From: Amoebophrya sp. A120
Taxonomy: Eukaryota; Protista; Dinoflagellata
Reading direction: 5' to 3'
Length of the DNA: 64,000 nt
Assembly: GCA_905178155.1 (NCBI GenBank)
Contig: CAJINV010000005.1
Span: 1,266,438-1,330,437, forward strand
Both the position numbers and the translations under genes were made by a program. The notes beneath the pieces are model-generated. The model was given only the letters and a program-made list of their open reading frames with translations. It made no database searches and was not told the DNA's origin. Shown piece after piece: positions 6,188 through 53,100 of the stretch. Positions within the stretch are counted from its first letter, which is position 1. Each line of letters starts with the position of its first letter.

Positions 6188-7750
6188 ATGAAGGCAGTCG
6201 AGGGGAAGCCGAGTGTCACCGTCGTCCAGGCGGATCAGTCGAAGCCCGAAACTATCAAATGTAAAAATGTCTGGGTCTGGAAGAATGCAACTTGTGATGC
6301 TATTTTTGGAATCCAAAAAAATCTGTATTGCATGAGCAACAAGAGGCGTCCAGTTTTTGCTCCGCGGAGAGGGGATTTCTCATGCGGGATAGGCATCAAA
6401 ATACCCGCAAAAAATTTGTGATGCTGGTGCATACATCACAGACATCACGGGTCATGCAAAATGTGCATGACAAACCTTGCAATCTTCCAGACCCAGACAT
6501 TTTTACATTTGATAGAAACGCTGGATGAGGTGCTCAAAGGCGCGTACGGGGTGTTCAATGTGACCGCGTTCTGGGCTTCGGCCACGGACGGGGGCACCGG
6601 CTCGGACAAGCCCACGGACGCCGCCTACGAGAAGATGCAGGCGCTGAACGTGAACGCGGCCTGTGCGAAAGCGGGGGTCAAGCATCTGGTGTTCTCCATG
6701 TTGGAAAACACGGCCAACCACAAAGATTTTAACCAGGACAAGGCGTTCAAGGCCGTCGAAGGAAGTACCTACGTCGTTCCGCACTTCGACGCGAAGGGCG
6801 AAGCGAGCGAGGCGCTGAACGAGCAGAAGGACGTGGCGGTGGACTTCGTCATGGTCGGTTTTTACTACGGCAACTTTTTCGGGATGAAGCCGCAGAAGGG
6901 CGAGGACGGGAAGTACGCCATGTACATGCCCCTCGGGGGTTGAGCACTCAACTGCGAAACGTAAATGAGCACGCGGAGCCCGCGCGTCCCCATGCACAAA
7001 TGAATGAATGAATGAAGGTGAAGTGCATCGACGTGCCGGTCGAGGGCTGGATCGCGAGCGGTGTTTCCATGGGGATGGACCCGATTGTCTGCCGCGACTT
7101 CGTATCAACTGCAAAAGTGTCTGGGTCTGGAAGAATGCATGTTTATCATGCTTGTCTGGCATGACTCTTACATCTGTCATGCACGTCACTCGAGAGCTCC
7201 ATTTTTCTGTCATGCAGAAACACAGTTTGTCATGCAGAATAGGCAACACCTAGAAGGAGCCCAGAAACTTGTCAAGCTGAGCTAGCACTTGTGGCCTCAT
7301 CATGACACGCCACCCAGCATCACAAGTTTCCAGACCCAGACATATTTGCATTTGATACTGCGGGCAGATGTTCGCGTTTTACCAGACGGAGTCGGCGATG
7401 GATATGGCCTTCTCAAACGTTACTTTCTCAACTGTTACATGCATTTGCCATGCGAAATGACCATCAATATCTGCATTATCAAGCTGCTTCGCTTGACGAC
7501 TCGTCGACGTGCTAGATAGCCTTAGAATCTTCTGCGCCAAAGAACCTGTAATGCAAAAGGCGAAACCTGCCCCCTTTCACTTTTGTCATTCTTGCATTGC
7601 AAATTCATGCAACAGCTGGTGAGTGTAAAGTTTGAGAGCTCCATACTGGAAAAGCGCGAAGAATTCTACAACGCGGGCAAGGGCAAAATGATGGCCTTCG
7701 AAGACTGGCTGAAGAACGTGAAACCCTACCTCTACCCGGATCTTGCGTAA
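6188..7750 (+). CDS. NmrA-like NAD(P)-binding protein, 3' part (multi-exon, possibly disrupted)
   Basis: Spliced translation VVQADQSKPET|LDEVLKGAYGVFNVTAFW...AGVKHLVFS...VPHFDAKG...FGQMFAFY...AFEDWLKN. N-terminal GxxGxxG is absent from the window. Contains two introners and probable GT-AG introns (e.g. 6939-7017). Confidence 0.8.
6253..6514. mobile_element. TIR introner, family A
   Basis: 32-bp TIR tatcaaatgtaaaaatgtctgggtctggaaga; TSD GAAAC (6248-52, 6515-19); removal gives PET-LDE. Confidence 0.92.
7103..7357. mobile_element. TIR introner, family A (subtype 2)
   Basis: TIR; TSD CTTCG/CTGCG; removal gives CRDF-GQMFAFYQ. Confidence 0.88.
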
Positions 7751-9493: not shown

Positions 9494-12081
9494 ATGTCCG
9501 CACCAGGAACAGGTACCATCAGCATGGGAAAGGCAAGCAAAGCGACGCGGCAGGGAGCAGCGGTGGGCGCCCCGCTTGTGACCAGCGGACCGGCCGCCGC
9601 CCCCCCCCCCACGCCCCGATCGACAACAAAGCCTTTGCTCCTACCGGAAAAGGCGGGTCGGCTGCGTCGCGCGAGCGGGACTACTGTGCGGGGGAAGTCG
9701 CCGCCGACTGTCCGCCCGTGTTCGGTCCGCAAGGGGATGTTGAAAGCGGATTTTTGGACAACAGCGACAAGGATCACGACGACGAAGACGATCATGTCTC
9801 TGCCGCCACCGGCATCAAGGATCATGCTGCAAAGCTACCGGGGGCGGACGCCGCGCGCTCTACCTTCGTGTCTTACGAGACCTTCCCGGCGAAACAGATG
9901 CCGGACGGCAAAAAACTCTCACAGCCGGCGTTGGCGAAGGCTTCGTCTACTGCAGCGGGGCGAGCGGTCGTCGCTGGTGGCTTGTGCTCTCGTGCTTTCC
10001 TGTGGACGTCCTGCGCCCTCATGGGTTTGTTCTTGTTCTTGACGATCTTCGGCTGGGACACTGCGGGTACTTATCTGTTATTTATATGAGGTTCAATTTC
10101 AAATCAATTATCATATGTATCACGTATCAGAGTCAGACTCATGAAGGACGATGAAGAGTCTCTTCGAAATATTTATTTTCTCCCACAGGGTTGGGAGAGC
10201 GAATGCAAGGAAGGAAAAGCTTAATGTACTGGATCTGCGTGTGCTTTTAAGCCTGGGCATACAAGACCAAGAGTACTTCTACTTGCATTCGCGCTTGAAC
10301 TTCTTCAAGGAACTCGCGAAAAGAAACACGGAATCAATGGGAGGTGGATGTCAGCGCATTTATTATTATGAAAAGGAAAATCAATAGTAATAAAAGCATG
10401 TGAAGAGAATGAGAAAATGAAAAACTAATCACAACAGTTGATGCGTGCTTCCTCCTGCAGGCTACGGTCTTGGCCGGTACCTCGACGACGAACGTTGCGA
10501 CGTTGCTCCTGACGCCGCACGACGAGGGACCGCCGGCGTCGGGAAAGAATTCCTCCGTTATCAAATGCGAAGATGTCTGAGTGTGCTGGAAGGTAACTAG
10601 AAAGACAAACAACAGACGCTTGTACTAGTCATGTAGGTTTTGCTCCTGCAGCAAGTTCAAGAGTGAAGTCTGGAACGCAGACAGAGCATGACAAATTTCG
10701 CGCAGGCTTGTCCGTGATTATGCTTACTCGGTTGGAGAAATCGCCTCTCGCCGGGAAACAAAATTTTTTGATACCTACGCAGAACAGAGTTTCTAATCTG
10801 CCTGTCCCTGTTACAGGGTCCGCATCTACTTGGGTACTTATTGCGTCCTACTTTCTCTACCAGAACCAGACATATTTGCCACTCATGAACGTGCAAATGG
10901 AACAATGGGCAGCTACATTGCGGGGGAAAGGGGGTGGAGCTACTACATCCCCAGAAGAGGCGGGAGCCGCGAACGCAACCGCTGTCGTGTCGCCGTCGTC
11001 GTCCTTCATTTTTGCGGGAGAAAAGCAATCGGCTTCTCATTCCGTGGCACAAAGCGTGGTGTTCGGCGAAGAACTTTGCAAATCGCGCGGTCGCGACGCG
11101 ATCAACCAATGGCGTCAAGAGACTTTGTCGTGGATGAACCAGTTCCGGTTCCCGTTTATGAACAGGTTGGCTCGTTTGAATTACGACCAACATCCAATGG
11201 AATCGAAGAATTTGCAAGACGCGAAAACAGCCTGCGAAAACGACCCGCTGTATGCATCGAATAAAGTATATCTGGGCCTGGGAAATTCTTGCAGAAGAAC
11301 ATTTGTCATTGTCATTCCTGTTCACTGACACGACCCTGAAGCTGAGCTTTCTTGTAATGCGTGTGCATAGTCATGCAAGAGCGGACTTTTTCGTACGAGA
11401 TACGGAAAATGTGGCCGCTCGAAAACTTCTGATGCGTCTTTGCTCTCTAGGCTTTTGATAGCAGCGTGCGCCTTCTTCCTCAAGAACTTGCGTTTCAACT
11501 TTCCAGACCTAGACATATTTGTATTTGATGCCTTAAAGGTTGGTGATTTCGAGATTGGACACTGCACTTTTTACCAACCTTACCGTGAGCTTTTCGAGTA
11601 TGATGACCCCATGTGTGTCATGGCCCGGGACGAGTTCGACGACGACGGCAGATACGACGGGACCAACCCCGACCAGGGGAAGCAACCTACCCCGGCGCAG
11701 TGTTTGGCGATCACCTTCAAAGGAGCTGTTACCACCTATGGAGCTAACGTACGCTGCAAGATGGGTGATGATTTGCGTGAAGATTCCGATGCATGGGTGC
11801 CTTATAACAAGATTCCGGAAACCTGCGAGTGGCAGGATGTGTCGGTCAAGGTTCCCGGAGGAGGCGGTGATGGTGAAGAAGAAACCTGCGTGACCGAGGT
11901 TACTGGTACTCCTGGGTTTCTTGGAGGTTTTGTTCGACCTCGCGGATGCTGCGTCCCGAAAGGCAGCAAAGAAAAGAAGATTCGCTGGAAGCTCGAACGA
12001 ATGATTCGCACCAGCGCACAAAGTTCGTCAATGGGCCCGGAGACTGGACTACATGCAACAATCTTTCACGATGAAGACTGA
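9494..12081 (+). CDS. Hypothetical membrane protein with Cys-containing C-terminal region (multi-exon)
   Basis: Hydrophobic segment AFLWTSCALMGLFLFLTIFGW. Exons join in frame after removing two degenerate introners. Apparent frameshift at the poly-C run 9600-9610. Confidence 0.55.
10559..10887. mobile_element. Degenerate TIR introner, family A
   Basis: tatcaaatgcgaagatgtctg...cagacatatttgccactcatg; TSD TCCGT/AACGT; removal gives KNSS-VQMEQW. Confidence 0.7.
11251..11530. mobile_element. Degenerate TIR introner, family A
   Basis: tatgcatc..atctgggcctgg...ccagacctagacatatttgtatttgatg; TSD CGCTG/CCTTA; removal gives NDPL-KVGDF. Confidence 0.68.
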
Positions 12082-14560: not shown

Positions 14561-15201
14561 TAGGTGTCCGGGATTTTGCAAGACACAACAAAAATAGAAC
14601 TGGAGGAAATAAATATCTCTGCGCGGCTGCATGCAAAAGAATTGTCTAATATTGCAGCGCCATTCATTCCCCATCTCGCAGGGCAAAATAAAGCAGCTGC
14701 TATTTCCTGGCGCATAATTTCAGAGATGAGCACGCACTTCTTTTGCATGGGGGCGCAAGCATTTCTTTCGGATTCTGTTAGGGGGCAGGTTGAACTTTTG
14801 CGCTTTTATCTTTTTCATTTTCTGCGTCTCGAGTGTTTTTCCTGTGAAAAATGTTATGGGCATAGGCGTTAAGTTCGCCTGCCTGTATTTTTCCTCTCGG
14901 GGGTTCGCCTGTCGCCGTTACCTGTGACAGCCCTTCGTCACGGCCGCCTGTCCCGGCCATCTGTCCAAGCCATCTGTTCCGGCCACCTGAGACGGCCAAT
15001 CGTCACGGCCACCTGTCGCCGTCCCCTCTCGTCGGGGGTATGCGGGACCCCAGAGCCCGCGAGTACAGCTGTGTGAATATTAAGAGCTGCTCCTAGAGTT
15101 TTCATGGTTTCTTTTCGGCGTAGCCGCGCTGCGGCAAGGCACAACAGCAGAAGCGGCAACAGCTTTACCTTCCGAGGGCCGAAGAGCGAAATCTTGGCCA
15201 T

Positions 15202-15870: not shown

Positions 15871-18800
15871 ATGGCGATCATCGCCGCCTATTCGCCTGGC
15901 GACCGAACCAGGGTCGGAAAGCTGAGCAGCGCCCCCAGCAGTGGTTCGGCCAAGAAGACGCAAAATTCGGGAGGAGGACATGTCAGAAATCTACCCGGCA
16001 ACAGCCATTATGGCTTGATAAATCGGTTCTCTTCGCCCGCTGCGATGAGTGGCAGCGTCGCAAGGGAAACCGGGCTGGCACGGATCAAGAGGAATTTGGA
16101 AATGGACGCGATGAGAGCGGTATCAAATAAACTAGATCATCATCATGTTGTACGACATCCTCGTGAAGAGTATTGCGACGTCACTGAACGACATGCAGAT
16201 TGCAGAAGTTCTTGCTGAGCTACTGCTACTTGCAGACGAAAAGACTGACATTTGTGTTGAAATTATCAAATACCACCCCCAGGAAGCTGCAGACGACGCC
16301 GATAATATTTTAGTCAGCAACGCCGAGGACATCAATATGGCCACGTCCAAAGACAATGGCACCCCCAGCTACAACGAGGCCCATACGAAAGCGAAGAACA
16401 AATTGAAACAACTCTCCCGATCGATGACGCGCGATTCCGACATAGTGAAGCGTATGCGGGAAATTGAGGAGCAGAATGCGGAGAAGTTTTCCATCGATGC
16501 ACTGGCGGAGAACAAGGGGATTTCCGTATCAAAGTGAAAAAAGCCCCCACCCCATATCGGAAACGGACGATGCGCGAATTTGTGAAGCTGTATTTGAGTA
16601 CACAAATCGACTTGTATTGCTAGAAGGCCAAGAGACGAAGCTGCGGCCTAAATTGCACGTAATCTGACATGCTGTTTCCCACTTCCAGTTGCCTCCTGTC
16701 ATCCTGGAGCTGCAAGGCTTTCCCACGCTAGACAGCACTACAGTCCGCATCTTTTGCCTTCTAGCATCACAAAGCTGATTTGTGACCACAAATCTGCATC
16801 ACAGATTTCCGTTTTGATATGGGGAGGGGGCATTTTTCATTGTAATATTCCGAGGGGATGCTGCTCGACTGGCTCGACAAGGAAGTCAACGACGAGCATA
16901 TGAAATGCAAAAGCATCGTACTACGTATAAATCGCATGACAAACTTCCTCAGCATGAAAAACAAAACTCGTGGTGCGGATTTAACTTGAGGAAGAAACTT
17001 GTAATGCATGAATGCGATTAGTACGAGTGCGATACTTTTGCACAGGATAGAGCAGGCGTGCTTGCAGCTCCCGTTCGCACTGCTCCTCGTGATTGTCTTC
17101 GCGGCCTTGTTATGCATTGCAAATGCGTCATCTGGGTCGGGTCTGGAAAGGTGCAAACCTGTGATGCTGTCTTTGGATTCTAAAAAAATCGGTATTGCGT
17201 GGCCAGCAAGAGGAGCCCAGTTTGATGTGCTACGCGGAGACAGAGGGCACTTCTCATGCGGAATAGGCATCAGGAACGCCTCTAAAAATCTGTGATGCTA
17301 GGTCACGCATCGGAGGCAGAGGCATCGTTGGTCATGCAACATATGCATGGGGGGGGCGCGCGGACCTCGCTTGCCATCTCGTTTGGTCTCGCGAAAGTTC
17401 CAGTCCCCAGTGGGTGGTTTCGGTCGGGCCGCACCCAAGGACTCCACCCACTCACCGCGCGGTGTGTGCTTTCTTTTGGCTGCATACAGGAAAAAAAAAT
17501 AAGTCCACCTATTTCAAGGGGCCGCACCCCGCTTTTTATGCCCGGCCCCGTTCCTGGCACACAGCGTGCTCCACGAGGCGGGCGCATAGATGGGCTTGTA
17601 GATCCGGCGACACTCATGTGGACATACTAATGCTTCATGATGACAAGTAAAAAATCCACTTTACAGCTACCGCTTCGCTTTGCAAGCACCGCAATCGAGG
17701 TAGTGCTGACCTGTTTTATACCGTAGTACGCAAATGTCTGACAATTCAAAAAAACAAAACTATTTCATCTTCTCGTCGCCATCATAAGTGCCTTGAGGTG
17801 CCGCACACCTCTATCTCTAGTTTCTTGTTGATTACTTCTCGCTCGTTCGGTCGCGCATGTGCGGTGCAGCTCGCTCAGAGTTTTTTGTTTTTCATGCGAC
17901 TCTGCAGCCCTCACGCATAAAGGTTTGCATGTTTCAAGTCTTTGGACTTTCATGGGCTCACGCACATCCGAGATCGGGGGGGTGGGAGGGGGTCCTCAAG
18001 CCAGAAAAAAAATCCCCCCGAGTGTGAATCGGGAATATCAAGGTGCAACATATGCATGACAAACCTGGTGGCAATCGTCCAGACCCAGACATATTTGCAC
18101 TGGATACTTGTCAGTTTTGACACTGGGGAATAAATACGTCCAGGACGTGCACACCAGCATCGATGTGTTCATTCGGGAAAATGCGAACTTCGGGTAGTAT
18201 ATGGCATGAGCGTTCTGCTTTTGCATGGTTACTTTCATAATGAAGATCCTCATTTGCGCTTCAATGCTGCGACATGCGTGCTTTTTCCTCCGCAGTTCCT
18301 CTTCCTTTTTCTTTCTGTTCTCCCTCTCTTGGCTGTTTTTTGGCATGACAGAAATTCGTTCTCTTCACTATATACAGGTTCGACCACGGCGACATGCACG
18401 GCTTGAAAGCGCTCCGAGACGTCCACACCGTTGCCGACGTCTATTCCTGGCTCCGCCTCGGCTTCGTCCCCCTCATGCTGTCTGACTCCTTCGGCTACAG
18501 TGAGCACTTGACCGACACGGTTACTGCCCCACAGACTTTACCGCCGGCCCAGCAGTTCCCAGGATACCAACGCACCAGCCCTTTACCCTCAGATCTCCTG
18601 CTGTGGAACCACTTGGTCGGCGCAGTCAGACTCACCCAAACGACGAACTCCGAGCACGGAAGCAGTTCTTGTTGGGACGTCCCGGAGGAAATCCGACTCG
18701 TTCTCAACGACAAACTGACCCCGTGTTACGGTCAGGGCGATTTCCCAACCTTGCAGCAGCATTTGGCAATCAGCAAACCCGTGGAAAGTCCCGCGAAAAC

Positions 18801-21800
18801 CGTTTTCTTACCGACAGACTTCGCGAGCCCGGGAAGCCCATACTCCTCCACCGCGGAGGTGCAAACGGCCATTGGGGACCTGGAAAAGAACCTCTGGATC
18901 ACGGAAAACGTGAAGCAGGTGCAGATTTCCTTCCTCTCCCTGAACCGGGAATTCGGGCTGTGGACGATGACGACGATTTCCTTCACTTTCCGACGGGGTG
19001 GCCAAGTGTTGAAAGACATCTACCAGCAGTCCACCTGGCTCAACTTCCCGATGGGCAACGCGCAGCCGGAGCTGCTCACCTCGCTGAACCTGTTGTGGCT
19101 CGCGATGAACTGCTACATCTTTCTATCCTGAGTAAAAACGTACCCACACCAGAGTCAGGATGAGGATTTTGCAACACAAACTGAGGAGTTTTGTGAGTCA
19201 CGCATGACAAGTTGCACTATGCAGTGTAGTGCAGGTTAGCAAGTGCAGCCGCATCACAGATTCATCTGCTCATCCTGTTCACAGCATCACAAATTCCAAA
19301 TATATTGATTCTCATATATTGATTCTCATATATTGATTCTCATATATTGATTCTCATAGTATAGCAGGTCTCTGGGGTTCTGTGTGATTCAGTCATGGAC
19401 TTCCTGTCTGCTTCTATTACAGTTGTGAGCGCAAAGCAAGGTTGAAAAATATATAAGTGCCCGGGGATGAAGAAATACTCGCGATGTTTTCGCGGTTCTG
19501 ACCCTATGCCGCTCCAGCGCCTGCGGAGGCTTGCTTCCCCAGTGACAATGGACAATGGCAATGTCCGTGCGGTTGTTTTAGCATCACAAATTCCAAAACA
19601 CGATTGGAAATGGCTCTCATGGGGATGCGCATTACAAGTCTTCCTGTCTTTGCAAATCTGCATTACAACTCTGCTGTGTGTACGTTTTTACTCAGGATAC
19701 TTTCTCCAAGAGGTCACCGAAATCGCGAAGATTTTGAAGGAAACGCGGTCGCTCTCCCGGTTCAGCCAGAAGTATTTCGGGTTGTGGAACGTCGTCGACT
19801 GGCTCACCGTGTTTTCCGCGTGCTCCTTATCGCAAGACAAAACTGTTTCACTGTGAACTTGTGATGCATAGAATGGAGCACAGAACGATTTGCCTTGCTG
19901 CACGTGCAAGACATTGGATTTTCAGGCGTGTTTTCCCTTTGGAAGCGCGCATGGCAAATTTTCTGTGTCATGTGTAGCAAACTTGTCATGCAGATCTTGC
20001 AAAGCCATCCCAGTGAAACAGTTTTTTCGTGGGATACTCCTTGATCGGGTTTTACTTCTACTTGAACACCTATGGAAGCGCCAGGATTGAAATCATCAAA
20101 GTTGAAATTATTTGTAATGCATAAAATCGATACCAGCTGATCTGAAGCCCAATTTCCCAAGTGCGCATGACAAATTTCGGCACCGTCTAAAACCAGTTTG
20201 TCATGCTGTTTAGGGACAGCAGGCGCCTAGTGTCATGCTACTTTAGCAGCTCGATTCCAAACCCGAAACAGGCTTACAATTGGCCTCATTTGCAGTCCTT
20301 GCAAGAGAGGCACTTCATGCCTTGCAATTTCTGCATGAGAAATTATTTGTATTTCAACTTTGAGGATTTCAATCCTGACGCTTCGATAACACCTTTGTGA
20401 TGGACTTGAAGACGAATTTTTCCTCTTTAACCACCGGAAGTAACTCTTTGACCAACGAGAAACTATACGACCTAACGCTGAACATCATGACGCACCAGAA
20501 CGAATTGGTCTTCTGCAGCTACCTGTACGTGTTGATATCGCTTGTCCGCTTGTTCAAGGGGTTCTCCGCGCAACCGCGGTTGGGCGTGGTCACGAACACC
20601 ATTATCAACGCGGCGGTGGACATTTTGCACTTCCTCGTGGTCTTTTCCTCGGTTTTCTTCGCGTATGCTCTTGCTGGTGTCATCGTGTTCGGCCGGCATC
20701 TGCAGGAATTCGCGACGTTAGACGTGTCCTTGACGACGTGCTGGCGGCTGGTCTTCGGCGATTTTGACTGGGATATCAAAAGGAAAAATCCCCCCTCCCC
20801 ATATCGAAAAGGTATGTCTCCGAAAATTTGCGTTGCTGATTTGATGAGGTCACAAATCACGGCTGTCTTGCAAAAAGACAAGGGCAGAAGCTTCCGCCAT
20901 ATTATGGAGGCGATTTGTCATGCTGTTGGGCCTAAAGGGGAGCCGTTTGCCATGCTAAGCAACTACTTAGACCCATACGCTCCTACCTAGCCTGGGGATC
21001 TGGCCGCAGTGTCTTACTGCAATATATATAAAGCCGATTTTTCTACACAGATCCAGCATCAGAAATTCCGTTTTGATATGGGGCGGAGGGATTTTTCCTC
21101 TCAATATGGGAGAGGACGAGCCGGATCGCGCCCTGGGAAGCGGCGGTGTTCTTCTACAGCTTCACACTTTTGGTCGTGTTGATCATGCTCAACATGCTAT
21201 TGGCGATCATTCTCGATACCTACATGGACGTGAAAGGACAGTCGACGAAGGCGGAAACCCTGTATTCCCAAGCGATCGAGACGGGTTCGAGGTACATACG
21301 GTTGAAAAAAGGCTCGAGGGTATCTTTGGAATACATCCGGAAGCACTTGTTGAGACGGGCGAAAGCGCTACTGTTGGCAGAGCAGGATGGCGGTCTACTT
21401 AATTGGGGTGTTTCGATCGAGTGTGTGCTTGTTGTGGTCTCCTGCGTCTCGATGTTCTTGTTACGCATAATCATGATAAGATGAGTGATTGCAATTGCAT
21501 TGATAGACCACTTCTTGTTGTCCGAATTCGTCTTCGACCCTAGTAGTTCCTAAATGTTCAGGTTCCTATCCCGCTTCCATCCCAGTAGTGCCCACGACGG
21601 CCGGCAATTCGGATGCCGACCCCGTGCCTGAGCAAGACGCCAAGAACGCGAAGCCACCACTTGGTCTTGCTGCGAACAAATACCTAACCACTTCTTCTGG
21701 TGAGGAGTCGGAGACCACTTTAGACGCCGCGAACAGGGGAGCAACGGCAGTAGACAAATTGAGCAAGCAGGTTTCCATATCAGACGAAACCACGGCGACG

Positions 21801-23685
21801 GAATCGAACAAGGTCCTCTACTCCGAGGGCGAGCACTCCCAGGTGGCGCCGGGGGGCAGCAACGCCGCTGCGGTCGTGTGGCAGAAACGGGCGGAAAGGG
21901 CGGGGTCAGGTACTTCTACAATTATCATGGAGTTACTTATTAAGTTGAAGTTCAAGGCCACGTCGAGGGTCAACATGTCGTGTGCTCTACAGGAACAAGG
22001 CAAAGACAATGACAATCGAGTCTACTGTCGTCATGCTTACTTACTTGCGTCACTCACAGTCAGACCCTCACCCTAAAAAATTTTAGGATTCATTCGCGGG
22101 GGCGGCAACCACAATTCCCACAGTCTGGATTTCCACTACACCGAGGGCTCACCCGGCCACGTCGAGTTGGATTCCTACGCATCCCCCGAAACTCAGCCCG
22201 GATCACGTTATCAAATGCAAAAATGTCTGGGTCTGGAAGAATCCGAACTTGTGATGCTGCATTTGGATTCCAAAAAAATCTGTATTGCATGACCAGCAAA
22301 GGGAATGCAATTTTGGCTACGCGGAGAGGGCATTTGTCATGCGGAATAGGTATCGCGAAGCCCTCAAAAAGTCTGTGATGCTAGGGCATGCATCACCGAC
22401 ATCATGGCCCATGCAAAACGTGCATGACAAGTCTCAGAATCTTCCAGACTCAGACATTTTTACATTTCATACACGTGCCCGCAAGTCCAAACTGGAAGCG
22501 ATCCGCAGCAACATCCTACACCAAATTTCCGGGGGCCCCCCGGCGTCCTCTTCCTCCAGCGACGGAGGTGGCATTTTATCTTCCCCCGGGCGACCCCCGC
22601 ACATCCCCTCGTCGTCGACTTTACCGACGATCGATTGCTGTCGGCAGTTGTTGCAATCGAGGACCGACGAGTACCTCACCGCGGAGGACTTGCAGAATAT
22701 CATCCCGAACCTCCCGAAAGACCAAAGCGAAAGGACCATCCGGAACGCGTTGCTCGATCTCTGCGACGAGTCGGAATTGAACGTCGAGCCGAGTCCCGCG
22801 TGCGGTTTCGAGGCGATCCACGAAACTTTGGAAGAGGGCTTTATGATGATCCGCCGGGAACTATCCTGAGCAAAAACGTCCCCACACTAGAGTCAAGATG
22901 GGAAATCTGCTAGACAAATCGAGTAGCTTTCGTTGTTTGGCATGACAAGTTTGTCCTCGTAGTGTAATCCTGTTGAGCTAGCTCCAGCAGCATCACAGAG
23001 CTAGCATAGCATGCTGATTAGAGCATCACAAATTCTACAACACGACTAGAAAATGCTTCTCATGGCGCTCCGCATGAGAAACTTTTTTGGCATGCAGATT
23101 TGCATAGCAACTCTGGGGTGGGGACGTTTTTCCTCATGATAGGAACTCGGGGAGATGACCGGGAACAAGAGTCTGAATCGAGGAGTTGGGGGGCCTGGGT
23201 TGCTGAAGAAACAGTCCAGTGCTGGTCCCAGTCCCATTTTGGCCGCACCCAGTCCTGTTGCATTGGTAACGAGCGCAGGAACAGGGCGAGAACATCAACT
23301 GGGTCAACCTCAGCCGACAACTTCTACCGCTCCCGCAACGGTTGTCTCCACGCCTGTGCAACAAGAGCAGAATACCACGAATCTTTCTACGGAAGAGAGA
23401 TTATCCAGGATAGAAAATCAATTGTCCCAACTGACGCAACTGCTGGTAGCCCAGCAACAAACCTACGACTTGAAATTCGACTACAGCAGGAGGCCGAGTC
23501 ATATGAACGGAGAAGGTGGAGTCGTTGACCAAGACGAGGTGCGGATTTACGAGCCGGGACGGCTAACCCCAAGCTCGTTCTTCTTCTGCACTAATCCGCC
23601 AGTAACGCAACAAATCGGAGGTGGTGGTGGTGCAGCCACGGCGGTGCAGCAGCCGCGGAGTAGAAGTGGCAGCACGCAACTGTGA
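15871..23685 (+). CDS. Polycystin-2 (PKD2/TRPP)-like cation channel, multi-exon; 5' end uncertain
   Basis: Spliced product has DVHTVADVYSWL, LVGAVRLTQ, YFGLWNVVDW, RLFKGFSAQPRLGVVTNTI, GVIVFG..L.EFATL, FGDFDWE and LIMLNMLLAIILDTY. Contains 9 introners plus GT-AG introns (e.g. 18194-18377). Confidence 0.85.
16527..16847. mobile_element. TIR introner, family B
   Basis: tatcaaagtgaaaaaagcccccaccccatatc...gatatggggagggggcatttttcattgtaata; TSD TTCCG; removal gives KGIS-EGMLLDW. Confidence 0.88.
16899..17049. mobile_element. TIR introner, family D
   Basis: tatgaaatgcaaaagcatcg...cgatacttttgcacaggata; TSD GAGCA; removal gives NDE-QACLQLPF. Confidence 0.88.
17111..18106. mobile_element. TIR introner, family A, carrying a nested 694-bp insertion
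   Basis: TSD CTTGT; removal gives FAAL-SVLTLG. Confidence 0.85.
17350..18043. mobile_element. Nested insertion flanked by a 15-bp direct repeat
   Basis: tgcaacatatgcatg at 17335-17349 and 18044-18058. Confidence 0.75.
19124..19699. mobile_element. TIR introner, family C, with nested insertion
   Basis: tatcctgagtaaaaacgtac...gtacgtttttactcaggata; TSD CTTTC; removal gives CYIF-LQEVTEI. Confidence 0.9.
19301..19579 (-). mobile_element. Nested SINE/LINE-fragment-like insertion with a 14-bp tandem-repeat end
   Basis: 18-bp direct repeat agcatcacaaattccaaa (19283-300, 19580-97); 4x tatattgattctca at one end. Confidence 0.65.
19828..20036. mobile_element. TIR introner, family E
   Basis: tatcgcaagacaaaactgtttcactg...cagtgaaacagttttttcgtgggata; TSD CTCCT; removal gives ACS-LIGFYF. 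Confidence 0.88.
20071..20388. mobile_element. TIR introner, family F
   Basis: ~38-bp TIR tatggaagcgccaggattgaaatcatcaaagttgaaat; TSD ACACC; removal gives YLNT-FVMDLK. Confidence 0.88.
20774..21106. mobile_element. TIR introner, family B
   Basis: TSD TGGGA; removal gives GDFDW-ERTSRI. Confidence 0.88.
22209..22471. mobile_element. TIR introner, family A
   Basis: TSD CACGT; removal gives QPGSR-ARKSK. Confidence 0.9.
22862..23141. mobile_element. TIR introner, family C
   Basis: TSD GGAAC; removal gives IRRE-LGEMT. Confidence 0.9.
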
Positions 23686-36300: not shown

Positions 36301-37281
36301 ACGCCAAGGAACTCGGAGTCGGAGAGTACTTTTATATAAGATTTTTTTCCCTTTGCCTTTTGAATTAGAATTTGATGACTTCATCTTTGAGCAGGCATGA
36401 AGTACACAAAAGATTTCAAGTTGATGAAAGGTGAGACTTGTATATGCTGATGTGGAAGTGGATTACCACACAAGGACTATACAACCCTTGATCTGTAATG
36501 CAATATTCCCCCAACACGACACCACAGCTTTCGCTACGCCATGGACGAGTCGACCACCAACGCGCTGTCCAACCTGTCCCTCGAGGTCACGTTGAAGAAA
36601 AAAGCCCTGCTGGATGATATCATGGACAAGGAGTGGAAGGTGAAGGTCGACCAAGTTTGGAACATGCTTGACGACGACCGGTCCGGCTACGTGATCCGTG
36701 CGGAAATGCAGGCCCACTACAGCGCCGCGCTGAAGCACAAATCGGTCTCGGTATCCTGAGTAAAAACGTACCCACACCAGAGTCAGGATGGGGAATCTGC
36801 TAGACAAATCAGCCAGCTTTGGTTGTTTGGCATGACAAGTTTGTCCGCGTAGTGTAGTGCTGTTTGAGCTAGTTTAGCAGCATTACAGATCTAGTATCTC
36901 GTGCTGATTGGAGCATGACAAACTTCAAAACCGCATTAGAAAATGCTTCTCATGGGGCTCCGCATGAGAAACATTTTAAGCATGCAGAGTTGCATGACAA
37001 CTATGGTGTGGGTACGTTTTTACTCAGGATACTCGGCCCAGGTGCAGCAAATCTTCGACGACATCGACGCGAACGGGGACGGGCTGATCAGCTACGACGA
37101 GTGGACGCTGTATTTCGCGGATATGGTGAAATCCAACGCCGTGACGATTCCGCAATTGATGCTGGAATTGGACTGGTTCCTGAAAGCGGGCGGCCACGCG
37201 GCGATCGGGATTTTAGGCGGGGAAAATCCAAGTAAAAAACCGGCAGGCGGGGGCAAGGCGGAGGAGAAGAAGAAGAGGTGA
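27397..37281 (+). CDS. ~2780-aa low-complexity/coiled-coil protein with C-terminal EF-hand pair (7 exons)
   Basis: Exons 27397-29045, 29303-33834, 34146-34199, 34473-35071, 35286-36325, 36528-36751 and 37037-37281 total 8343 nt in frame. EF-hand loops DDDRSGYVIRAE and DANGDGLISYDE. Confidence 0.75.
29046..29297. mobile_element. TIR introner, family A subtype 2, opposite orientation to 7103
   Basis: TSD AGACT; removal gives MEQR-LSKKQ. Confidence 0.92.
33835..34140. mobile_element. TIR introner, family B
   Basis: tattacaatgaaaaatgcccccacccc...; TSD GCTCG; removal gives LKAL-AEHMR. Confidence 0.9.
34200..34467. mobile_element. TIR introner, family A
   Basis: TSD GATTT; removal gives DLRI-LSLLLK. 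Confidence 0.92.
35072..35280. mobile_element. TIR introner, family G
   Basis: tatcaaagaaaaaaacaccat...atggtgtttttttcttggata; TSD ATTCG/ACTCC; removal gives TFNS-DAGV. Confidence 0.82.
36752..37031. mobile_element. TIR introner, family C
   Basis: Perfect TIR tatcctgagtaaaaacgtacccacacca; TSD CTCGG; removal gives KSVS-AQVQQIF. Confidence 0.92.
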
Positions 37282-44124: not shown

Positions 44125-47100
44125 ATGGGCTTTTTCGGGTCGCTGAATTTTGCAAGCCCACTGTTTCTGCTTGAAATGGTGGGCCTTTTGCTCATCGCAG
44201 CCCTCTGTTTTCTCTACGTGTGGCTGAAAGAGCGGAAGTTGGGACGACGGACCACGCCTGATCCAGGTTCTTCTTATTTCGGCGCCGGGAACAAGACCGA
44301 AAATGTTCTTCACAGCAAGCAAAACTCGAATGTCGCGAAGCTCCGACAGGCGGAGAGCGAGAAACACTGCGTGTACTACCAGGTGGCGACGAAACGCGAC
44401 TACTTTGGGACGGTGCTTTTCTCCCTCGTGCTCGTCCTCCTCTACTTCGTCATGGTGGTTTTCCCCATCTTCTACGCGTTCGGCCTCGGCGTGTTCACGA
44501 ACCAGCCGGGCCCCTTCGCTATGACGGTGTGGGAGCCGTTTTTGCCCGACGGCACGGACATCAACACCCCGGGCTACAAGTTCTTTCTCTGGTACGCCAA
44601 CGTCTTTGCCGGGGTGGACTACTGCCCCGATCCCATCGTTGCTCTGAACGTCAAGGACGCCGCTACCGGAGTGATCTCCAACCCCTTCAGCTGGGCCCTG
44701 ACGCACGGCGTGTGCCTCGAGGGAAACATGACCGGAAAAACGGACGGCGCGATCCCCGCCTTTTTCTTCGTGATGTTCTTCATCCAGTGGGTCGGCGTGG
44801 GCATCGCCTTCTTCCTCTTCTCGCCCCTCTACACAAAATTCAAGTACGGACTCTGCTTCCAACGGATGACGACTGCTCTTTCGACTGAAGGTGGTAGTAC
44901 TTCTGAACAAGACGAAAACGAACAAAGCTCCCCCTTCGCGACCTGTCCTTTCATCGCCGTCTACCGCGTGGACGGGGCGACGGTGGCGGCCAAGAAGGAG
45001 CAAAACAAGAAACTTCGGGACAAGACGATGACGTTTGAGGGAACTGAATCGGAAAAAAATGATCATGATATGACTCTCTCGTCGTCCACCGAAAACATTA
45101 TCGTCCCCGAGATCGACGGGCAACTGGTAGTGATCGAGAAAGTGAAAGACCACGCATTCCGTTATCCTGTGGAAAAACATCCCCACCCCAGAGTTGTCAT
45201 GCAAATCAGCATGGTGAAAATGTAAATGTCTCTCATGCGGAGCCCCATGAGAAGCAATTTCTAGTCGTATCGCGGAATTTGTCATGCTCGAATCAGCATG
45301 ATATGCTAGATCTGTGATGCTGCTTAACTAGCTAAACAGGACTACACTACGGGGCCCAACTTGTCATGCGCAGCAGCCAAAGCTTGTCGATTTGTCTTGC
45401 AGATTTCCCAACTTGACTATGAGCTGGGGACGTTTTTACAAATGATATCCGTGACCTTTCGGAGAAGACCGTGGAGAAGCTGGAGAAAGTGCCGAACTTG
45501 AAGGATTTGCTGGAACCGGAGGGGAAGTTTTACCACCCGACCTGCAAACTTGCCTTACGGTCCATCATATCAAATGCAAAAATGTCTGGGTCTGGAAGAA
45601 TGCAACTTGTGATGCTGCATTTGGATTCCAAAAAAATTTGTATTGCATGAGTACGCAAAGGGAGTGCAATTTAAATTTTTGCTAGGCGGATAGGGCATTT
45701 GTCATGCGAAATAGGCATCAAGAACCCCTCGAAAAATCTGTGATGCTACGGCAGGCATCACAGACATCATGGCTCATGCAAAACGTGCATGACAAGTCTC
45801 AGAATCTCCCAGACCCCGACATTTTTGCATTTCATACATCATCGTTTTGTCCACGCAGTACTGGTACTGCCAGAACTCCGACAGCTTCGACGAGCCGCAG
45901 ACGGAGACGTTTGAGCGGCTGCGGAAGGAGAAGAAGCTCAACGCGGATTTGATCTCCCAAATCGCCGCCACGGAGACCAAGGATATTACAATGAAAAATG
46001 CCCCCACCCCCGAACTTGGAGGGAGCATTTGTATTGCAAACCTTTCCAAATGAAACATTCGCCCTCTTGCATCTATCGGCATCACAGATTTCCGACCGCG
46101 AATAGCAAAAATTTGTATTGCAAAAGACCCCAGCAAGAGCAGCGCTTGTCATGCAAGCGATGCGATACACGCCGAGACTCTGCATCAGAAAGAAGATTCA
46201 TAGTCCTTTCATGCATGACAAAAAGTTTTCATTTGGAAACTTCGCATCACAAATTTTTGCAACTTTGGGGGTGGGGGCATTTTTCACTGCGATAAAGGAG
46301 GATGCTTGCTCTTCCACCATCCTCCGGGAGTACTTCGGCGAGAACAAGATGTACATCGAGTTCCCGGGGTTCTTACGCATTGCAAATTATATGTCTGGGT
46401 CTGGAAAGAACTTGTGATGCAAGGAAGGGAATAGAAGTGGGCTCACTATGATGCGCTGCCAAGCATGACAGGTTTTTTTCATGCTTCTGAGTTGCGTATT
46501 CCGCATGAGAAACTGCGTTGTTGCATGTTGACAGGGAGGAAGAGCTCTAGTACTTGTTTGCGGCCATGCAATACAGAGTTCAGAGTCGTGCCAGACTAGC
46601 ACGGCAAATGTGTCGCAAGCTTCCAGACCCAGCCATATTTGCGTTTGATAGTTCTGGAAGTTTTTCTTCCGCATGTTCTTCGCCAAGCAGGTGGTCATCA
46701 TGCTGACCATGCTGGGGGTGTTCTTCGTGTCCGGCCAGGGGAACTACCCGATCGTGATGATCGTCATTCTGGTCTGGCAATTCGCGTTGGCGGCCTGGCA
46801 GGAGGCGAAGTACAGCAAAGAACTGGAAAAGCTGGTCCACAGCAACCGAAACTCCCAATACTTCGAGCGGGCGACCGTGGTCGGGAAGGACAACCAATTG
46901 GTCCCGTACGAAGGGTTGGCGGAGGAGTTGTGCGGGACGTACCAGGTTTTGTCCAGCAAACTGATTTATCAAATGATAAAAATGTCTGGGTCTGGAAAAA
47001 TAATGCGAGAGTTGTCATGCATGTCTGACATGACTGCTCAAGAATCTGTGATGCATGGGCACGACGCGCCGGCCCTCTTACCTGTCATGCAAAAACGCAG

Positions 47101-50100
47101 TTTGCCATGCGGAACACGCAACTACACATAGGCGCCTTAAAATTTGTCATGCTTGGCTCGGTATTGCAGTGCAAACTCTCATTCTCATTCACTTTTAGCA
47201 TTACAAGTTTCCAGACCCAGACATTTTTGCATTCTATATGATTCTCGGCGACATCGTCATTCTCGACAACAGCTTCCGGAACCAGACTCTACCGGCGGAT
47301 TTCGTTCTCCTCACCGGGTCTGCCGCGACGGACGAATCCTCTCTGACGGGTGAGAACGTGCCGGTGCAGAAATTCGCCATCAACAGCGACGAGTTGGACA
47401 GCGCTATTTCGACCAACGCGAAGAAAAGGCATGTTTTGTATTCCGGGTCGATTTTGCTGGAAACGACCGCGGCGGTGGAGGAGGACAGCACCGGGAACCT
47501 GCACTTGAACCGCGTGTTCGCCATGGTGGTCGGGACCGGGACGGAGACCAGGAAGGGGGGCTTGCTGCAGACCATGTTCCAGCAACCGAAATACGTCTCG
47601 GTGTTCGACAAAAACGCGAACAAAATGCTTCTGCTCCAAGTGATCGGCGCGGCGTTTGTGGTGGTCATTTTCGTCAAGGATATCTTCACGCCGTTTGAGC
47701 TGTTGTTGATGCTCGTCACGTTTCTCCGCATGGGCTCGCCGTTGGGTGCCTCGGGTACCGCGCAGGCGGCGAAGACCGCGGCGGGGAGGTTGAGAGCCGG
47801 TTTGTACAAGATCCGCACCATAGAGCCGATGCGGTTCATCGACGCGAGCCAGATCCAGGTCATATGCATTGCAAATATGTCTGGGTCTGGAAACTTGTGA
47901 TGCAAGAAGTGGATGATAGCCGGACAACTGCAATACGCAGCCCAGCATGACAAATTTTTGAGCTCCTATGTGTTGCGTATTCCGCATGAGAAAATGCGTT
48001 TTTGCATGACGGATAGGCGGGGCTTTTCGTGCCTATGCAACACAGATTCTCGAATCATGCCAGACAAGCATGACAAACGCTCCACTCTTCCAGACCCCGA
48101 CACTTTTGCAGTTCATAGGTCATGTGCTTCGACAAAACCGGAACTCTCACCGAAGAAGCGCAGCGGTTCGACTGCTTGGAAACGGTGGATGGGCGGGAAA
48201 TCGAGTTGAAGAAGGAACAAGGTACAACCACTAGTACACCTGTAGTTCATCTTGAGCAGCCTCTGGAAGAGAAAGACTTCTCGAAAGATTTGCTGACTCT
48301 GTCGCTGATCACGTGCAACACGGCGGCCAAAGTGAACAACAAAATCGTCGGGAACGCGGTGGAGTGCGAGATGCTGCGGGTGGCGGATGAGGTCTTCTCC
48401 GCAGATTTCTCGCCGAATAACTCCACCGGGTTGGAGTATTTCGTGAAAGACAAAACGGCCTACGGCGCGGACAGCCACAAGCTCTTTGCCACGGTGGTGA
48501 AGCAGTTTGAATTCGACCAGCAGTTGCAGCTGCAGTCCGTGGTCGTGAAATTGAACAACGGGGACTACTACGTGTTGACGAAAGGATCGCCGCGGAAAGT
48601 GATCGCGCGGACCAGTGAGGCGACGTCTCCCGCTGGGGAGGAAAAGAAGCACCAGTTCGAGCAGCGCGCCCAGGATTTAGCAAGGCAGGGCCGGTACTTG
48701 CTGGCCGTCGCCGGGCGGAAAGTGGATCCGGCACTGTATGACCTGCTCAAACGTTACAATCTCAAACGTTACAATAGAATCTGAAACTTGTCTTGCATGA
48801 TCAACATGACAGACTCGGACAGCATTCCATGTTCTGCAATACAAATTTCGCCAGATTGTAGTGCGGATTGGGACTCCACAACTTGTCATGCGTAATCCTG
48901 TGGGAATAGGGTAGATCATGCACTTCTTGCAACACAAGGTCCAGACTCTATTGTAACGTCTGAGATTGTAACAGTTGAGCAGGTTATACGCTGGTCGCGA
49001 AGATTTTGCTGGACAAAAAGCAGGAAACCACGGGCGGCCAACCAGAAGAAGGAGCAGATGATGTTCTTGAAACCCCGGGTTCTAACGTATTACTCCCCCG
49101 TGCGAGCAGCTCCATTTCGAAACTCGGACGCACCAACACCACCGTTTCGAATAATGAGAAGCAGGTGGTCTCTGCCGCCACGAACGCGCGGCATTTGTTG
49201 GAGAAAGACCTGAATCTTTTGGGTATGATCCGGTTCTGCAACGACTTGAAATCCGATTCGGCGGATATGCATCGCAAATATGTCGGGGTCTGGAAGGATG
49301 TGAAGTTGTGATGCGCATTTCACAACACACAGAAATCTCTCATGCATAGGCAGCAAAAGATGCTCACTTCTTGTCACCAAAGTGGAGGATTTGTCATGCG
49401 GATTAGGCATTGCAGAACCTTCTCGAAATCTGTGATGCTAGGGCCGCTTCCATGCCAGAGCCAGACCTTCTGTGTCATGCAAAAACAGCATGACATCTTC
49501 CAGACCCAGACATTTTTACATGTGATAGCGGACTGTTTGAAGCAGTTCAAACACGCGGCGATCTTGACGCAGATCGTGACCGGGGACAACATTTGGTCGG
49601 GAAGCAGCATCGCGCTGCAGTCCGGTGTCGTCCCGTTTGAGGAGCAGGAGAACAGCAGCTTGTGCTTGCTTGCCGTGGATTTGGACAAAAAGAAGAAAGA
49701 CAATACTAATACCTCCCTAATCGTCCACAACCTATCCGACAAAACCCTCCCCTGGTTTCAATTGACTGGGGAAGAGATTTTACAGCAGTATTTAGCCGCA
49801 ATCGACCCTGTGGAAACCAACGACCCGCTGGGGACAGAGAAGAACTGGCTCGGACTGCGGAAGAAGAAGCCTTCCAACGGGAAAGCCGTAACTTTGGTCG
49901 ATAAAAACAAGAACTCCAAAATCGTCGGCGAAAAGGTCTCGGTCCGGTTCGTGTTAACGCAAGACGCTTTCCACTTCTTACGGGCGGGGAACACGACGTC
50001 GAGCACTGGTGACGAGGAGAAGAAGACTATGCTGAAGAAGATCTTCCCGCGCACAGTTGTTTTTGGTTCCATGACGCCCGATGGGAAAACGGATATCATC

Positions 50101-53100
50101 CAGTACTGGAAAAATGAGTTCCACTACCAAACTGGCATGTGCGGGGACGGCGGGAACGATAGTGCTGCGTTGCGGATCAGTGACATGGGTGTTAGCTTAT
50201 CGAACGCGGAAGACATCGAGACTCAGATGTTGAACGATGCAGAGCCTGAAATGAACCATCAAAACGTCGAAACCACGTCGACCAGCCAATCCTCGCAGAA
50301 CAATAAATCGGAAATCACGTTCCTCGCCCCCTTTGCGGCAGACACGACTTCCATCCGCGCCTGTATCAACGTTTTGAAGGAAGCGCGGACGGTGGCGGAA
50401 AACGGGCTGGCCATTTACCAGTGGGTGTTCGTCTACGCGTTCATCATCAGCTTTGTTCGGAACTACCTGTTGCTGCAACGCTACAGCTACTTCAGTGAGT
50501 TCTTCGGCACCTCTCTCGATCTGGTCTCCGTCCCACTGGCCGTCTACGTTTTGGCAAGGGCGCGGGCGCCGGAAGACCAAGTGAGGAAAAATAGTAGTGC
50601 TGGGTCATCTTCTGTCGCTACTACTCCGAGGGAAGTCGAGTACGCCAAGATCAAAAGCCTGCAGTCCGCAAAATCCGAAGCGAAATTGCAGTCGTACCGG
50701 GCGGAAGATCACGTTGTGGTGGACCAGCACGAAAATAATGATATTCGCGCCGATGTTGCGGCCGGCGGAGGCAGCGGACATAATTCTGACCGCCAGCCGT
50801 TGTTGGCTCCCGCGGATAGGTACGACAGCAGAAATGACGAATACAGCAGCAGCATCAAACCTGACAACGACCTTGAAGACCCGGAGTACGAAAAGGAACA
50901 AAAACACGCTCAGAGCAAGAAAACGCAAAAAGCCGCGAACCAAACGGAGCTGTTCCCGGACTCCCCCAATCTGTCCCCGTTTGCCGGCGTCCGCGTCTGG
51001 GTGATCGGGATCATTCTCCCGCTGGCGCTCCTCTGGTTCGTCGGCTTTATGGTCTTGTTCATGCAGCTGATCGCTCCCAGCTACGACCTCGCCAGCGACA
51101 CCTGGTTCCGCCAGCCGGTGGACTGGTACGGCACCTACCTCCTGGCCCAGGTGAAGCACAACGAGCCGGGGCAATCGGTCGTCGGTGGGGCGGCCTTCGC
51201 GACGGCGTACTTCTTGACCGCACTGGCGATCCTCTACCTGGGCAGCGGGACCAAGTTTCGGTCGCATAAAATCTGGAAACTGGCCTCTTTGTGGGTTTCG
51301 TTTGGTGTCTTTTTCCTCCCGATCATGGTCCTTCCCATGGTACTCTCCAACAACTGGCTCAGCTGCACGATGCGCATGAACTGCGACAATCGGACCAGCT
51401 GGAACGTGGGGGGTGGCAGTGCGAAGTCGGGGAATAGCTTGTTGGACGGCTTCATGCAGTTCACCAGCTTCCGCGTCATGGGCTGGTTCGATTTTGACGT
51501 GACCAGCGCTGCAGTCTGGATGTACGAACCGGGTTGGACCGAGATTCACGAAGTGAACAAGACGCCTGCCAGTTCTCTCCTCCCCGGGGCCTTCCCGTTG
51601 GACCCAGAAGGGGACACGAGTCAGCGCTTGAACACCATCACGCGTAACTATCAAACCGGCGCGGATTACCTGGAGTCGACCAGTGGGGGCGACGTGAAGG
51701 ATATGTTGAAACAGTACGGTATGGTCGAGAATACACCCGTGCCAGAGCACTACTACAATTGGCACTTGGCCAAACAACCGGATGTGTTTACTCCGGGCGA
51801 AAAAGTTTACGATCCGGAGCAGAGTCTTCTGTTTTGGAAGCCGGTACTGGATGCGTTGAAAACGAGTGATTTGGACTTCTTCGCCCCCGCCGGAAAACTA
51901 GCGATCTCCGCTGCGAACGATCGGCAACAGACGCTGTTGCGCGGAACCTATCTCCTCAGTCCCGCGATGTTGACGCAAATGTTTCAGTACGGAATCATGG
52001 GGAATAATTCTCCATCTTCGCAAGAAGATTTCCCAACGGGGGCGGCTGCAAAACAGTGGCTGCAGGACGCGTTGGACAAGTTGCAGGAAAAGGCGAAAGC
52101 TTCTCCGAGTGTCGAAAAGGTCTCCGTCCTGTTCGCCACGCAACTGTTGTCGCATGAGGCGTACTGGAAGATGATTGATTACGTGAAGACCTTGCCGCCT
52201 GGCACTGTTGTTCCGGGGCCCACGACAAGTAGCCCTCCTGCAGTCACTATTCCTTCGAACCCGACGGACATGAACGACTTCATGGCGAAAGTGTACGAAC
52301 TTGACCACTTCCCTCTCCCGCTCAACCTCCCGGACGCCCCGCCTGCGCTCATCGCCGCGCAGCTGGACACACCACCCCGAGACATGAGCGACCCGCGGAA
52401 CCTCATGGCGCAGAGTATCAGCAAGTTGGCCATCAAGGGGCAGTATGCATTGCAAAAGTATCGTACTAGTATAAATCGCAATACAAATTGCCTCAGCATT
52501 AGAAATGGAATTTGTAATGCTGTTTTACCTTAGGAGGAGATTTGTTATCTCCTTCCTAAGGTAAAACAGCACCCAGCTTTAGGTCGTCGTCGGTATTGGT
52601 TTCCCCGTTTCGGATCCAGTGTTGGGGCTAAGCGAGGTCTGACTCACAATCTTTCATCTGCCAGGGTGTTAGATTAGTGAAGTTCCTGTGAAAAATCGTA
52701 CGGCGGGTGTGGTTTTAAAGTTCCTGCTGTATAACACCATTAACGACAAACAAACAAACAAACAAAGAGATTTGTTATGCATATTTGCAAGTGCTACGAG
52801 TACGATACTTTTGCACAGGATAGGCAGCTGGACGACGCGCCGAGCCTGTGGGTGGTACAGCAGCTGCTGGAAAAGAACATGTACAGCGGAATTCTTGGAA
52901 ACTGCAAGTCTCAATTGCTGGAACTACCGACGGACAAAAACAACTCAAGGTTCACCTACGGAATCAAGGTAAGTAAGTAAGTACTTACGATGAACAAAAA
53001 AATGTCGGAAAAATTATACGTTTTCCAAAACATTTTTATGTTGATTTTCGAAACCAATGAGTGTCTTTGATGTCAGGCAAAGTTTTTGCAATTTTGTTTT

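Follow-up and report, generated by a model that had tools for sequence, protein, structure and literature searches.

Inverted-repeat elements of Amoebophrya sp. A120 leave messenger RNA as non-GT-AG introns, with a probable fixed cut and a possible splicing code in their terminal repeats

The window analyzed here is a 64,000-nucleotide (nt) stretch of the dinoflagellate Amoebophrya sp. A120 (assembly GCA_905178155.1, contig CAJINV010000005.1, positions 1,266,438 to 1,330,437 of the forward strand), in which plus-strand genes, among them those for a P-type ATPase, a polycystin-type channel and an EF-hand protein, are interrupted by short elements with terminal inverted repeats (TIRs) that start TAT, end ATA and are flanked directly by two copies of a 5-nt sequence. 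The translation of the exon at 49528-52443 is 100% identical to an annotated A120 protein, and the model of the P-type ATPase gene in which the elements are precisely spliced out reproduces the annotated A120 protein P0001 letter for letter over 2291 amino acids.

The elements are TAT-type introner elements of strain A120 and, as such, are mainly published already, given that Farhat et al. 2021 (PMC7789003) describe such inverted repeats in this very strain, whereas the sequence-only reading of the window that preceded our analysis had given them as reported for Amoebophrya at large. The published introners are RNA-supported, about 240 nt long, occur in families resembling miniature inverted-repeat transposable elements (MITEs) and carry inverted repeats that start with TAT, followed by 7 variable bases and then As, with direct repeats of 3-5 nt at the borders (5 bp in the Fig. 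S19 legend); about 65% of the A120 introns are non-canonical, and the border position is left as unknown or variable (PMC7789003). The window elements share the TAT start, the approximately 7 variable bases, the A run, the 5-nt direct repeat, the non-GT-AG removal from mRNA and the repetition in families, and they show the MITE-type combination of TIRs, target duplication of fixed length and insertion in both orientations.

Scanning for inverted TAT...ATA termini directly bordered by 5-nt direct repeats (all element scans were bounded at 1100-1500 nt length) recovered 24 elements in the window, 21 with exact duplications and 3 with one mismatch, and none in each of 8 dinucleotide shuffles; an initial loose scan had yielded 497 pairs, mostly chance ones, which were discarded. 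Exact flush repeats come in one length only, with 21 of 5 nt and 0 each of 4, 6, 7 and 8 nt. An end profile combined with reading by eye added the elements at 46374 (starting TAC) and 35072 (two mismatches) and the eroded ones at 10559 and 11251, for a total of 28 within 6253-52822 plus one outside that range, at 59026-59347; thus, the class proposed by the sequence-only reading is confirmed, but its count of 27 is not. The duplications of the 28 are exact in 22 cases, with one mismatch in 3, two in 2 and three in 1. In the end profile (52 ends), T-A-T is conserved at 94-95%, and A accounts for 73-97% at positions 11-15. The approximately 8 families proposed earlier depend on the threshold: clustering of the 29 inner sequences gives 18 clusters, 5 of them multi-member. 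All 29 elements lie in coding frames, and no paired ends were detected by the end profile in the intergenic DNA or canonical introns of the window; enrichment of introners in genes has been reported (PMC9860276). The elements outside the P-type ATPase gene are as follows.

6253..6514, + strand: TIR element, exact 5-nt duplication
7103..7357, + strand: TIR element, duplication mismatch at position 3; 89% identical to 29046, in the opposite orientation
7403..7645, + strand: TIR element, duplication mismatch at position 1
10559..10887, + strand: eroded element, ends ATG, duplication 3/5
11251..11530, + strand: eroded element, ends ATG, duplication 2/5
16527..16847, + strand: TIR element, inside the polycystin-type channel gene
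16899..17049, + strand: TIR element, the shortest, 151 nt
17111..18106, + strand: TIR element, 996 nt, carrying a nested insert of about 690 nt
19124..19699, + strand: TIR element
19828..20036, + strand: TIR element
20071..20388, + strand: TIR element
20774..21106, + strand: TIR element, junction GDFDW|E within the PKD channel domain's pore region
22209..22471, + strand: TIR element
22862..23141, + strand: TIR element, GA-AG placement possible; orientation opposite to 45163
29046..29297, + strand: TIR element
33835..34140, + strand: TIR element, 90% identical to 45984
34200..34467, + strand: TIR element
35072..35280, + strand: TIR element, duplication mismatches at positions 2 and 5; an RNA piece starts at 35283
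36752..37031, + strand: TIR element between EF-hands; its joint is not among the RNA joints listed
59026..59347, + strand: eroded element outside the range read earlier, duplication mismatch at position 5

The nested insert in 17111-18106 (approximately 17348-18040) lies between two copies of a 15-nt repeat; removing the outer element still restores the frame, so that the intron would be 1001 nt long. The element at 19124 contains a short tandem repeat (19300-19360).

After removal of the element and 5 nt, all 29 junctions fall within plus-strand stop-free runs of at least 100 codons, an outcome with a chance probability of about 2e-4 given the 75% share, generously estimated, of the intron-free window that such frames occupy, whereas deleting 4 or 3 nt instead of 5 sharply shortens the open run in the long genes. 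The lengths of the 28 elements are spread over all three phases (9/7/12 modulo 3), and all 9 elements of in-frame length hold stops in all three frames. The earlier claims that every element sits inside a coding sequence, that its removal restores the frame and that read-through is excluded by the three phases are thus borne out, and its three junction peptides (IQV|MCFDKTGT, SKLI|LGDIV and GDFDW|E) are correct. Among the equivalent placements of the junction within the duplication, which are indistinguishable in 22 of the 28 elements, the GT-AG option at 47863, the GC-AG option at 52444 and the GA-AG options at 22862 and 45984 were rightly noted, but an AT-AC option at 45568 was missed.

Direct evidence of removal comes from sequencing runs compared over positions 35000-54000 of the window, namely X1, whose kind we guessed to be RNA, and X7, which is DNA. 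A 9194-nt contig of run X1, at a depth of 528 on the ATPase gene compared to 0-1 upstream, skips all 9 elements of this gene, each by exactly the element plus 5 nt, as well as a canonical intron that serves as an internal control for spliced RNA.

44126..53889 (end approximate), + strand: P-type ATPase-like host gene, 2291 amino acids
45163..45447, + strand: TIR element, RNA skips 290 nt; inferred intron 45162-45451
45568..45836, + strand: TIR element, RNA skips 274 nt; inferred intron 45567-45840
45984..46294, + strand: TIR element, RNA skips 316 nt; inferred intron 45983-46298
46374..46650, + strand: TIR element with TAC start, RNA skips 282 nt; inferred intron 46373-46654
46967..47238, + strand: TIR element, RNA skips 277 nt; inferred intron 46966-47242
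47863..48117, + strand: TIR element before the DKTGT motif, RNA skips 260 nt; GT-AG possible; inferred intron 47862-48121
48737..48988, + strand: TIR element, duplication mismatch at position 2, RNA skips 257 nt with the upstream base kept; inferred intron 48736-48992
49266..49527, + strand: TIR element, RNA skips 267 nt; inferred intron 49265-49531
52444..52822, + strand: TIR element, RNA skips 384 nt; inferred intron 52443-52826
52969..53249, + strand: canonical GT-AG intron, likewise skipped by the RNA contig

Although 7 of the joints were flagged "between: not known", the record coordinates leave 385, 887 and 144 letters between the pieces, which equal the exon sums, so that no extra letters are present at the joints. 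No GT-AG placement exists for 8 of the 9 removed elements, and the contig uses none of the in-frame, non-equivalent GT-AG pairs that are available within 20 nt at 6 of them. In the DNA run X7, the 9 joints are all absent and the contigs extend into the elements at approximately 45x (the depth of this run is too high for every joint to be counted). Removal therefore occurs at the RNA level and not at the DNA level. For these 9 elements, the proposal that they are precise non-canonical introns stands, with neither retention in the mRNA nor use of nearby GT-AG sites observed in the contig; the start of a single RNA piece supports one more (35072), which brings the elements with RNA evidence to 10 of the 28. 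At position 47822, the window has A where both the RNA contig and the DNA run have G, likely an assembly error or a strain difference.

The position of the cut within the duplication can be read wherever the two copies differ, by comparing the mismatched bases with RNA and with orthologues. At 48737, RNA keeps the upstream base at duplication position 2; at 35072, the RNA piece begins directly at 35283 without additional letters, which assigns position 2 to the upstream copy and position 5 to the downstream one. For the element at L018 778-1081, cuts at 0-1, 2-3 and 4-5 predict H, N and K, respectively, and the orthologues (an A120 protein, a 92% identical transcript-derived relative and an A25 protein; P0124, P0125 and P0128) have K, that is, the upstream copy is kept at positions 2 and 4. 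The second element of L018 (orthologues with G) and that of L009 (S or F predicted, F in the two relatives P0003 and P0004) have the upstream base at positions 1 and 3, respectively, and the downstream base at position 1 would create a stop at L040. At L058, position 5 gives S if downstream and W if upstream, and the homologues, with T and V, speak weakly for S. At the protein level, the orthologues run continuously across the element junctions. No A120 orthologues for L009 and L058 came up in the search, and the 15 exons beside mismatched junctions yielded one weak Pfam hit and no solved relative. The only placement that fits all these readings is a cut after the fourth base of the duplication and, accordingly, the intron is quite likely N + TAT...ATA + NNNN, with 1 nt before the element and 4 nt after it, neither flush with the repeat nor at the placement that gives an AG end. 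The fixed 5-nt offset of the sequence-only reading is borne out in total by the RNA skips and is refined here to 1+4. An N-T...A-N intron that leaves 3 extra in-frame bases, suggested by Table S4 of PMC7789003, was rejected, RNA skipping the element plus 5 nt in 9 of 9 cases.

For statistics beyond the window, we used another public, sister assembly, in which the end motif matched 139 loci and which is 99-100% identical to A120 in the one gene with an A120 protein match; the motif had 0 matches in viral or prokaryote contigs. Of the 243 end pairs in these loci, 194 have an exact 5-nt duplication, 24 have one mismatch, 7 have two and 18 have three or more, some of the latter being mis-paired ends. 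A second scan gave 283 elements, of which 226 could be oriented by the coding model and 4 lacked an open frame. Clustering of the inner sequences of 255 elements produced 61 unrelated clusters with up to 43 members, and the family links among them are split between the same strand (542) and opposite strands (498). In the window, 46967 and 47863 belong to one family (79% identity over 159 nt) in opposite orientations, and both are removed from RNA, so that no strand-specific inner signal is needed. Insertion duplicates any 5-nt sequence, in either orientation, and this combination of a duplication with both orientations suggests insertion at the DNA level. Co-option of splice signals from the duplication was considered and rejected: there is no base bias, and a placement of any of four splice-site classes is possible in 29 of 187 elements compared to 20 of 187 on the wrong strand.

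With the cut after the fourth duplication base, the first T of the 5' repeat becomes U+2 of the intron and the first A of the 3' repeat becomes A-7. Among 266 oriented elements, all having a strand call and a duplication that matches at 4 or 5 bases, the first T of the 5' arm never varies, the A varies once and the third T 6 times, always to C, whereas in the 3' arm, the first A never varies, the T varies 3 times and the last A 6 times. Thus, 0 changes were seen at U+2 and at A-7, two bases that do not face each other in the stem, compared to 6 in their respective partners (Fisher p=0.002 for positions 1 and 3). The strands of the deviant cases were rechecked, and one position-2 case is uncertain. 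The six TAC cases differ in subterminal sequence, and one of them (46374) is RNA-confirmed. Each tolerated TAC creates a C-A mismatch, whereas the U-G wobble that would result from the mirror change was never seen. This asymmetry is the reverse of what pairing would lead one to expect, which suggests that the ends are read as sequence, and we infer that U+2 and A-7 are so read and not only as parts of a stem. Were strand-biased mutation the cause, the same strand would not be expected to show T>C in one of the arms but A>G in the opposite one. The only oriented element with a 5' CAT, L064:3349-3547, was left out of the count (duplication 3/5); with the inferred cut, the G before it would yield a GC donor.

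Base pairing itself shows no sign of selection. On the transcribed strand, G-U and A-C combinations at positions 1-26 are nearly balanced (204 vs 216), with no excess attributable to selection for pairing, although this test is weak in that most arm differences are inherited from the family; positions 9-16, one of three bins, lean the opposite way (54 vs 82, p=0.02). Watson-Crick pairing reaches 97-99% at positions 1-3 (a figure partly due to ascertainment), 49-77% at positions 4-7 and 79-97% at positions 8-26, where the mean predicted ensemble pairing of the arms in 27 elements is 0.72-0.96; predicted element folds have z of -3.8 and -2.9. Positions 4-7 frequently differ between the ends of an element, which seem to be drawn from a variant pool shared across families; such variation could reflect exchange of ends between families or selection for an open region. 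The GT or GC at the 5' end and the AG at the 3' end of U2-type introns are both lacking: under the inferred cut, any base can occupy +1 and only T+2 is constant, and the last four bases belong to the duplication. Hence, of the earlier proposal that the stem and not splice signals directs removal, the part that stands is that no GT-AG is needed, but the primacy of the stem is called into question by the lack of any sign of pairing selection and by invariant bases that are not stem partners.

Spliceosomal introns share two invariants of this kind: the donor has U at +2, and the branch point is an adenosine located a short distance upstream of the 3' end. In A120, U2, U4, U5 and U6 along with 83 of 89 spliceosomal proteins have been reported, and U1 was not found (PMC7789003). 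Given this retained machinery and the resemblance of U+2 and A-7 to the donor and branch invariants, the reading we favor, with a probability of roughly 50%, is that these transposon-derived introns are removed by a relaxed spliceosome that would use an N-U donor, a branch adenosine at -7 and a 3' end set by distance. Under this mechanism, the 5' repeat would be read as an N-U-A-U (or N-U-A-Y) donor, and the third-last base of the 3' repeat would be the branch adenosine, with the 3' cut placed 7 nt from it rather than at an AG; the inner stem, comprising repeat positions 8-26, could bring the ends together in place of the missing U1, leaving the poorly paired positions 4-7 open, and the predicted product is a lariat branched at A-7. 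The repeat being palindromic, either orientation would supply both signals. More tentatively, at somewhat less than even odds, the terminal three bases of the palindromic end may constitute a complete, orientation-proof splicing code for a spliceosome that lacks U1 and requires neither G+1 nor AG. For comparison, 11 of the 13 canonical donors listed, most of them predictions, start with GTA followed mostly by T or C. At 52444, RNA leaves unused an in-frame GT...TAG option that is 3 nt shorter, which would make sense if this AG lay too close to the branch, but the equivalent GC-AG placement makes the case not clean.

Several observations weigh against the favored reading. The second step of splicing normally needs G+1, A-2 and G-1, and the elements possess neither a G+1 nor a terminal AG. 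The asymmetry amounts to 12 events, with the test chosen after the counts were seen, and strand calls conflicted for 4 further elements. Compared with the 5' arm, the 3' arm is not enriched for bases that would pair with a standard U2 (C at position 4, 155 vs 165; A at position 5, 131 vs 130), and neither the duplication, whose composition in gene orientation matches the background at each of its 5 positions (n=195), nor the availability of GT-AG placements (8/187 vs 5/187 on the wrong strand) contributes a signal. The 1+4 cut rests on 2 RNA and 4 orthologue cases, one of them at position 4, and assumes a single offset for all elements and, in the orthologue cases, that the exonic copy kept the old residue; a test of mismatch polarity based on AT bias gave no support (16:14 vs 2:3, p=0.66). 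All the RNA evidence comes from two contigs of one run that may stem from the genome project itself. The T at +2 in all of the top 9 non-canonical A120 motifs of Table S4 fits the 1+4 cut but may be the aligner's choice among equal placements, and the apparent lack of U1 is a difficulty as well (PMC7789003).

The missing U1 (PMC7789003) would be more readily accommodated if, similarly to Euglena, a structure-guided nuclease placed its cuts 1 nt and 4 nt outside the hairpin base and a ligase joined the exons, with release of a circular or linear intron, which is the stem-guided proposal of the sequence-only reading in refined form. Such a system would require no end dinucleotide and would be indifferent to orientation, the arms are predicted to pair in the ensemble and to fold well, as noted above, and in Euglena, fixed spacers of 3 and 5-6 nt are used around a paired motif whose pairing is needed (PMC12501133); a protein could, furthermore, still read U+2 and A-7. 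We nevertheless regard this route as the less likely of the two, considering the lack of a wobble excess, the C-A mismatch tolerated six times at position 3 (with 46374 confirmed by RNA) where a U-G wobble was never seen, and the weakest pairing being found right beside the cut. In a different scenario, the duplication could be cut at several places, with 1+4 being the commonest choice or an accident of few cases. The accessible literature gives some grounds for this, the Fig. 3 legend of PMC7789003 calling the A120 splice sites variable relative to the hairpin and the annotated donors of large A120 families in PMC12130899 being mixed (for example, gt 92, gc 21, ga 23, at 47, other 148), and contigs drop minor forms while most window elements leave the placement indistinguishable. 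However, annotation aligners choose among equal placements (PMC7789003), a single placement accommodates all 8 marker readings, and placements giving A-G or T-A ends are ruled out by two RNA cases, so that a variable junction appears improbable. Least probable, in our estimate a long shot, is self-splicing, removal at the DNA level as with the internal eliminated sequences of ciliates, or removal by a transposase. The elements do fold well, and their TA-rich ends with fixed geometry recall those ciliate sequences, but the DNA run retains the elements at full depth with none of the 9 joints, and 61 unrelated inner clusters that work in both orientations are unlike a ribozyme core.

Nonconventional introns of Euglena are reported to be released as circles. 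They resemble the window elements in a proposed MITE-like origin, paired ends, the lack of GT-AG and cuts at fixed distances outside the paired motif with a longer 3' spacer, but the motif is CDG...CHG with spacers of 3 and 5-6 compared to UAU...AUA with inferred spacers of 1 and 4, the next exon starts with a purine whereas here A+G makes up 59%, as in the flanks (n=195), and the need for pairing was shown by mutation, whereas here the stem is predicted and shows no wobble excess (PMC12501133). In Fritillaria borealis, TIR transposons likewise become introns, and there an adapted U2 spliceosome removes them; their ends are AG-AC or AG-AT with A-2 kept, whereas in A120 it is U+2 that is kept, with no constraint on the last four bases (PMC11282704; bioRxiv 10.1101/2025.08.15.670264). 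The introners of Micromonas and Aureococcus are also non-autonomous TIR elements with target duplication and enrichment in genes, but they carry or co-opt GT/GC and AG, which the A120 elements do not (PMC11282704, PMC9860276).

For A120 itself, Gozashti et al. 2025 (PMC12130899) describe families that, like those here, are TIR DNA elements of 100-350 nt with mostly non-canonical ends, their TIR superfamily being given as unknown and one family having integrase-like open reading frames (ORFs) between the TIRs; the duplications there are 2-5 nt or not called, the splice sites are mixed and there is no common geometry, as far as 21 of the 58 A120 rows go. Compared with Farhat et al. 2021, which in its accessible text finds no splice signature, the flush 5-nt duplication with a 1+4 cut, the splicing in both orientations and the strand-asymmetric conservation of U+2 and A-7 are additions of the present analysis (PMC7789003). 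A literature search, which did not reach the figures of that paper, found no published description of the 1+4 geometry or the U+2/A-7 asymmetry.

If the terminal bases do form such a complete splicing code, tens of thousands of A120 introns would be spliced without the recognition of G+1, A-2 and G-1 that is regarded as universal for exon ligation. If a spliceosome is responsible for the removal, it would be the most relaxed natural one in the literature we read. It would also explain how transposons could invade any exon position in either orientation and leave the protein unchanged. A fixed cut and a named candidate branch nucleotide make the removal of the approximately 65% non-GT-AG introns of A120 directly testable, and the use of duplication mismatches as markers provides a rule for re-annotating such introns.

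Elsewhere in the window, two long intron-free plus-strand ORFs, 539-2929 and 3084-5519 (797 and 812 codons), have no TIR element inserted and no Pfam match. By eye, the former has what we take to be tyrosine-recombinase-like motifs and the latter, presumably, reverse-transcriptase and RNase H-like motifs, together suggesting a DIRS-type retrotransposon. An RCC1-repeat gene at 40280-42832 has canonical introns only and no TIR element. A palindromic MITE-like element with different ends (of the GGCACTGAAAAA type) lies in non-coding DNA at 15202-15437, shortly after a 13-nt tandem array (14909-15030), and the end of the window (61800-64000) is a region of AT-rich and GC-rich repeats with an inverted repeat near 62163-63436.

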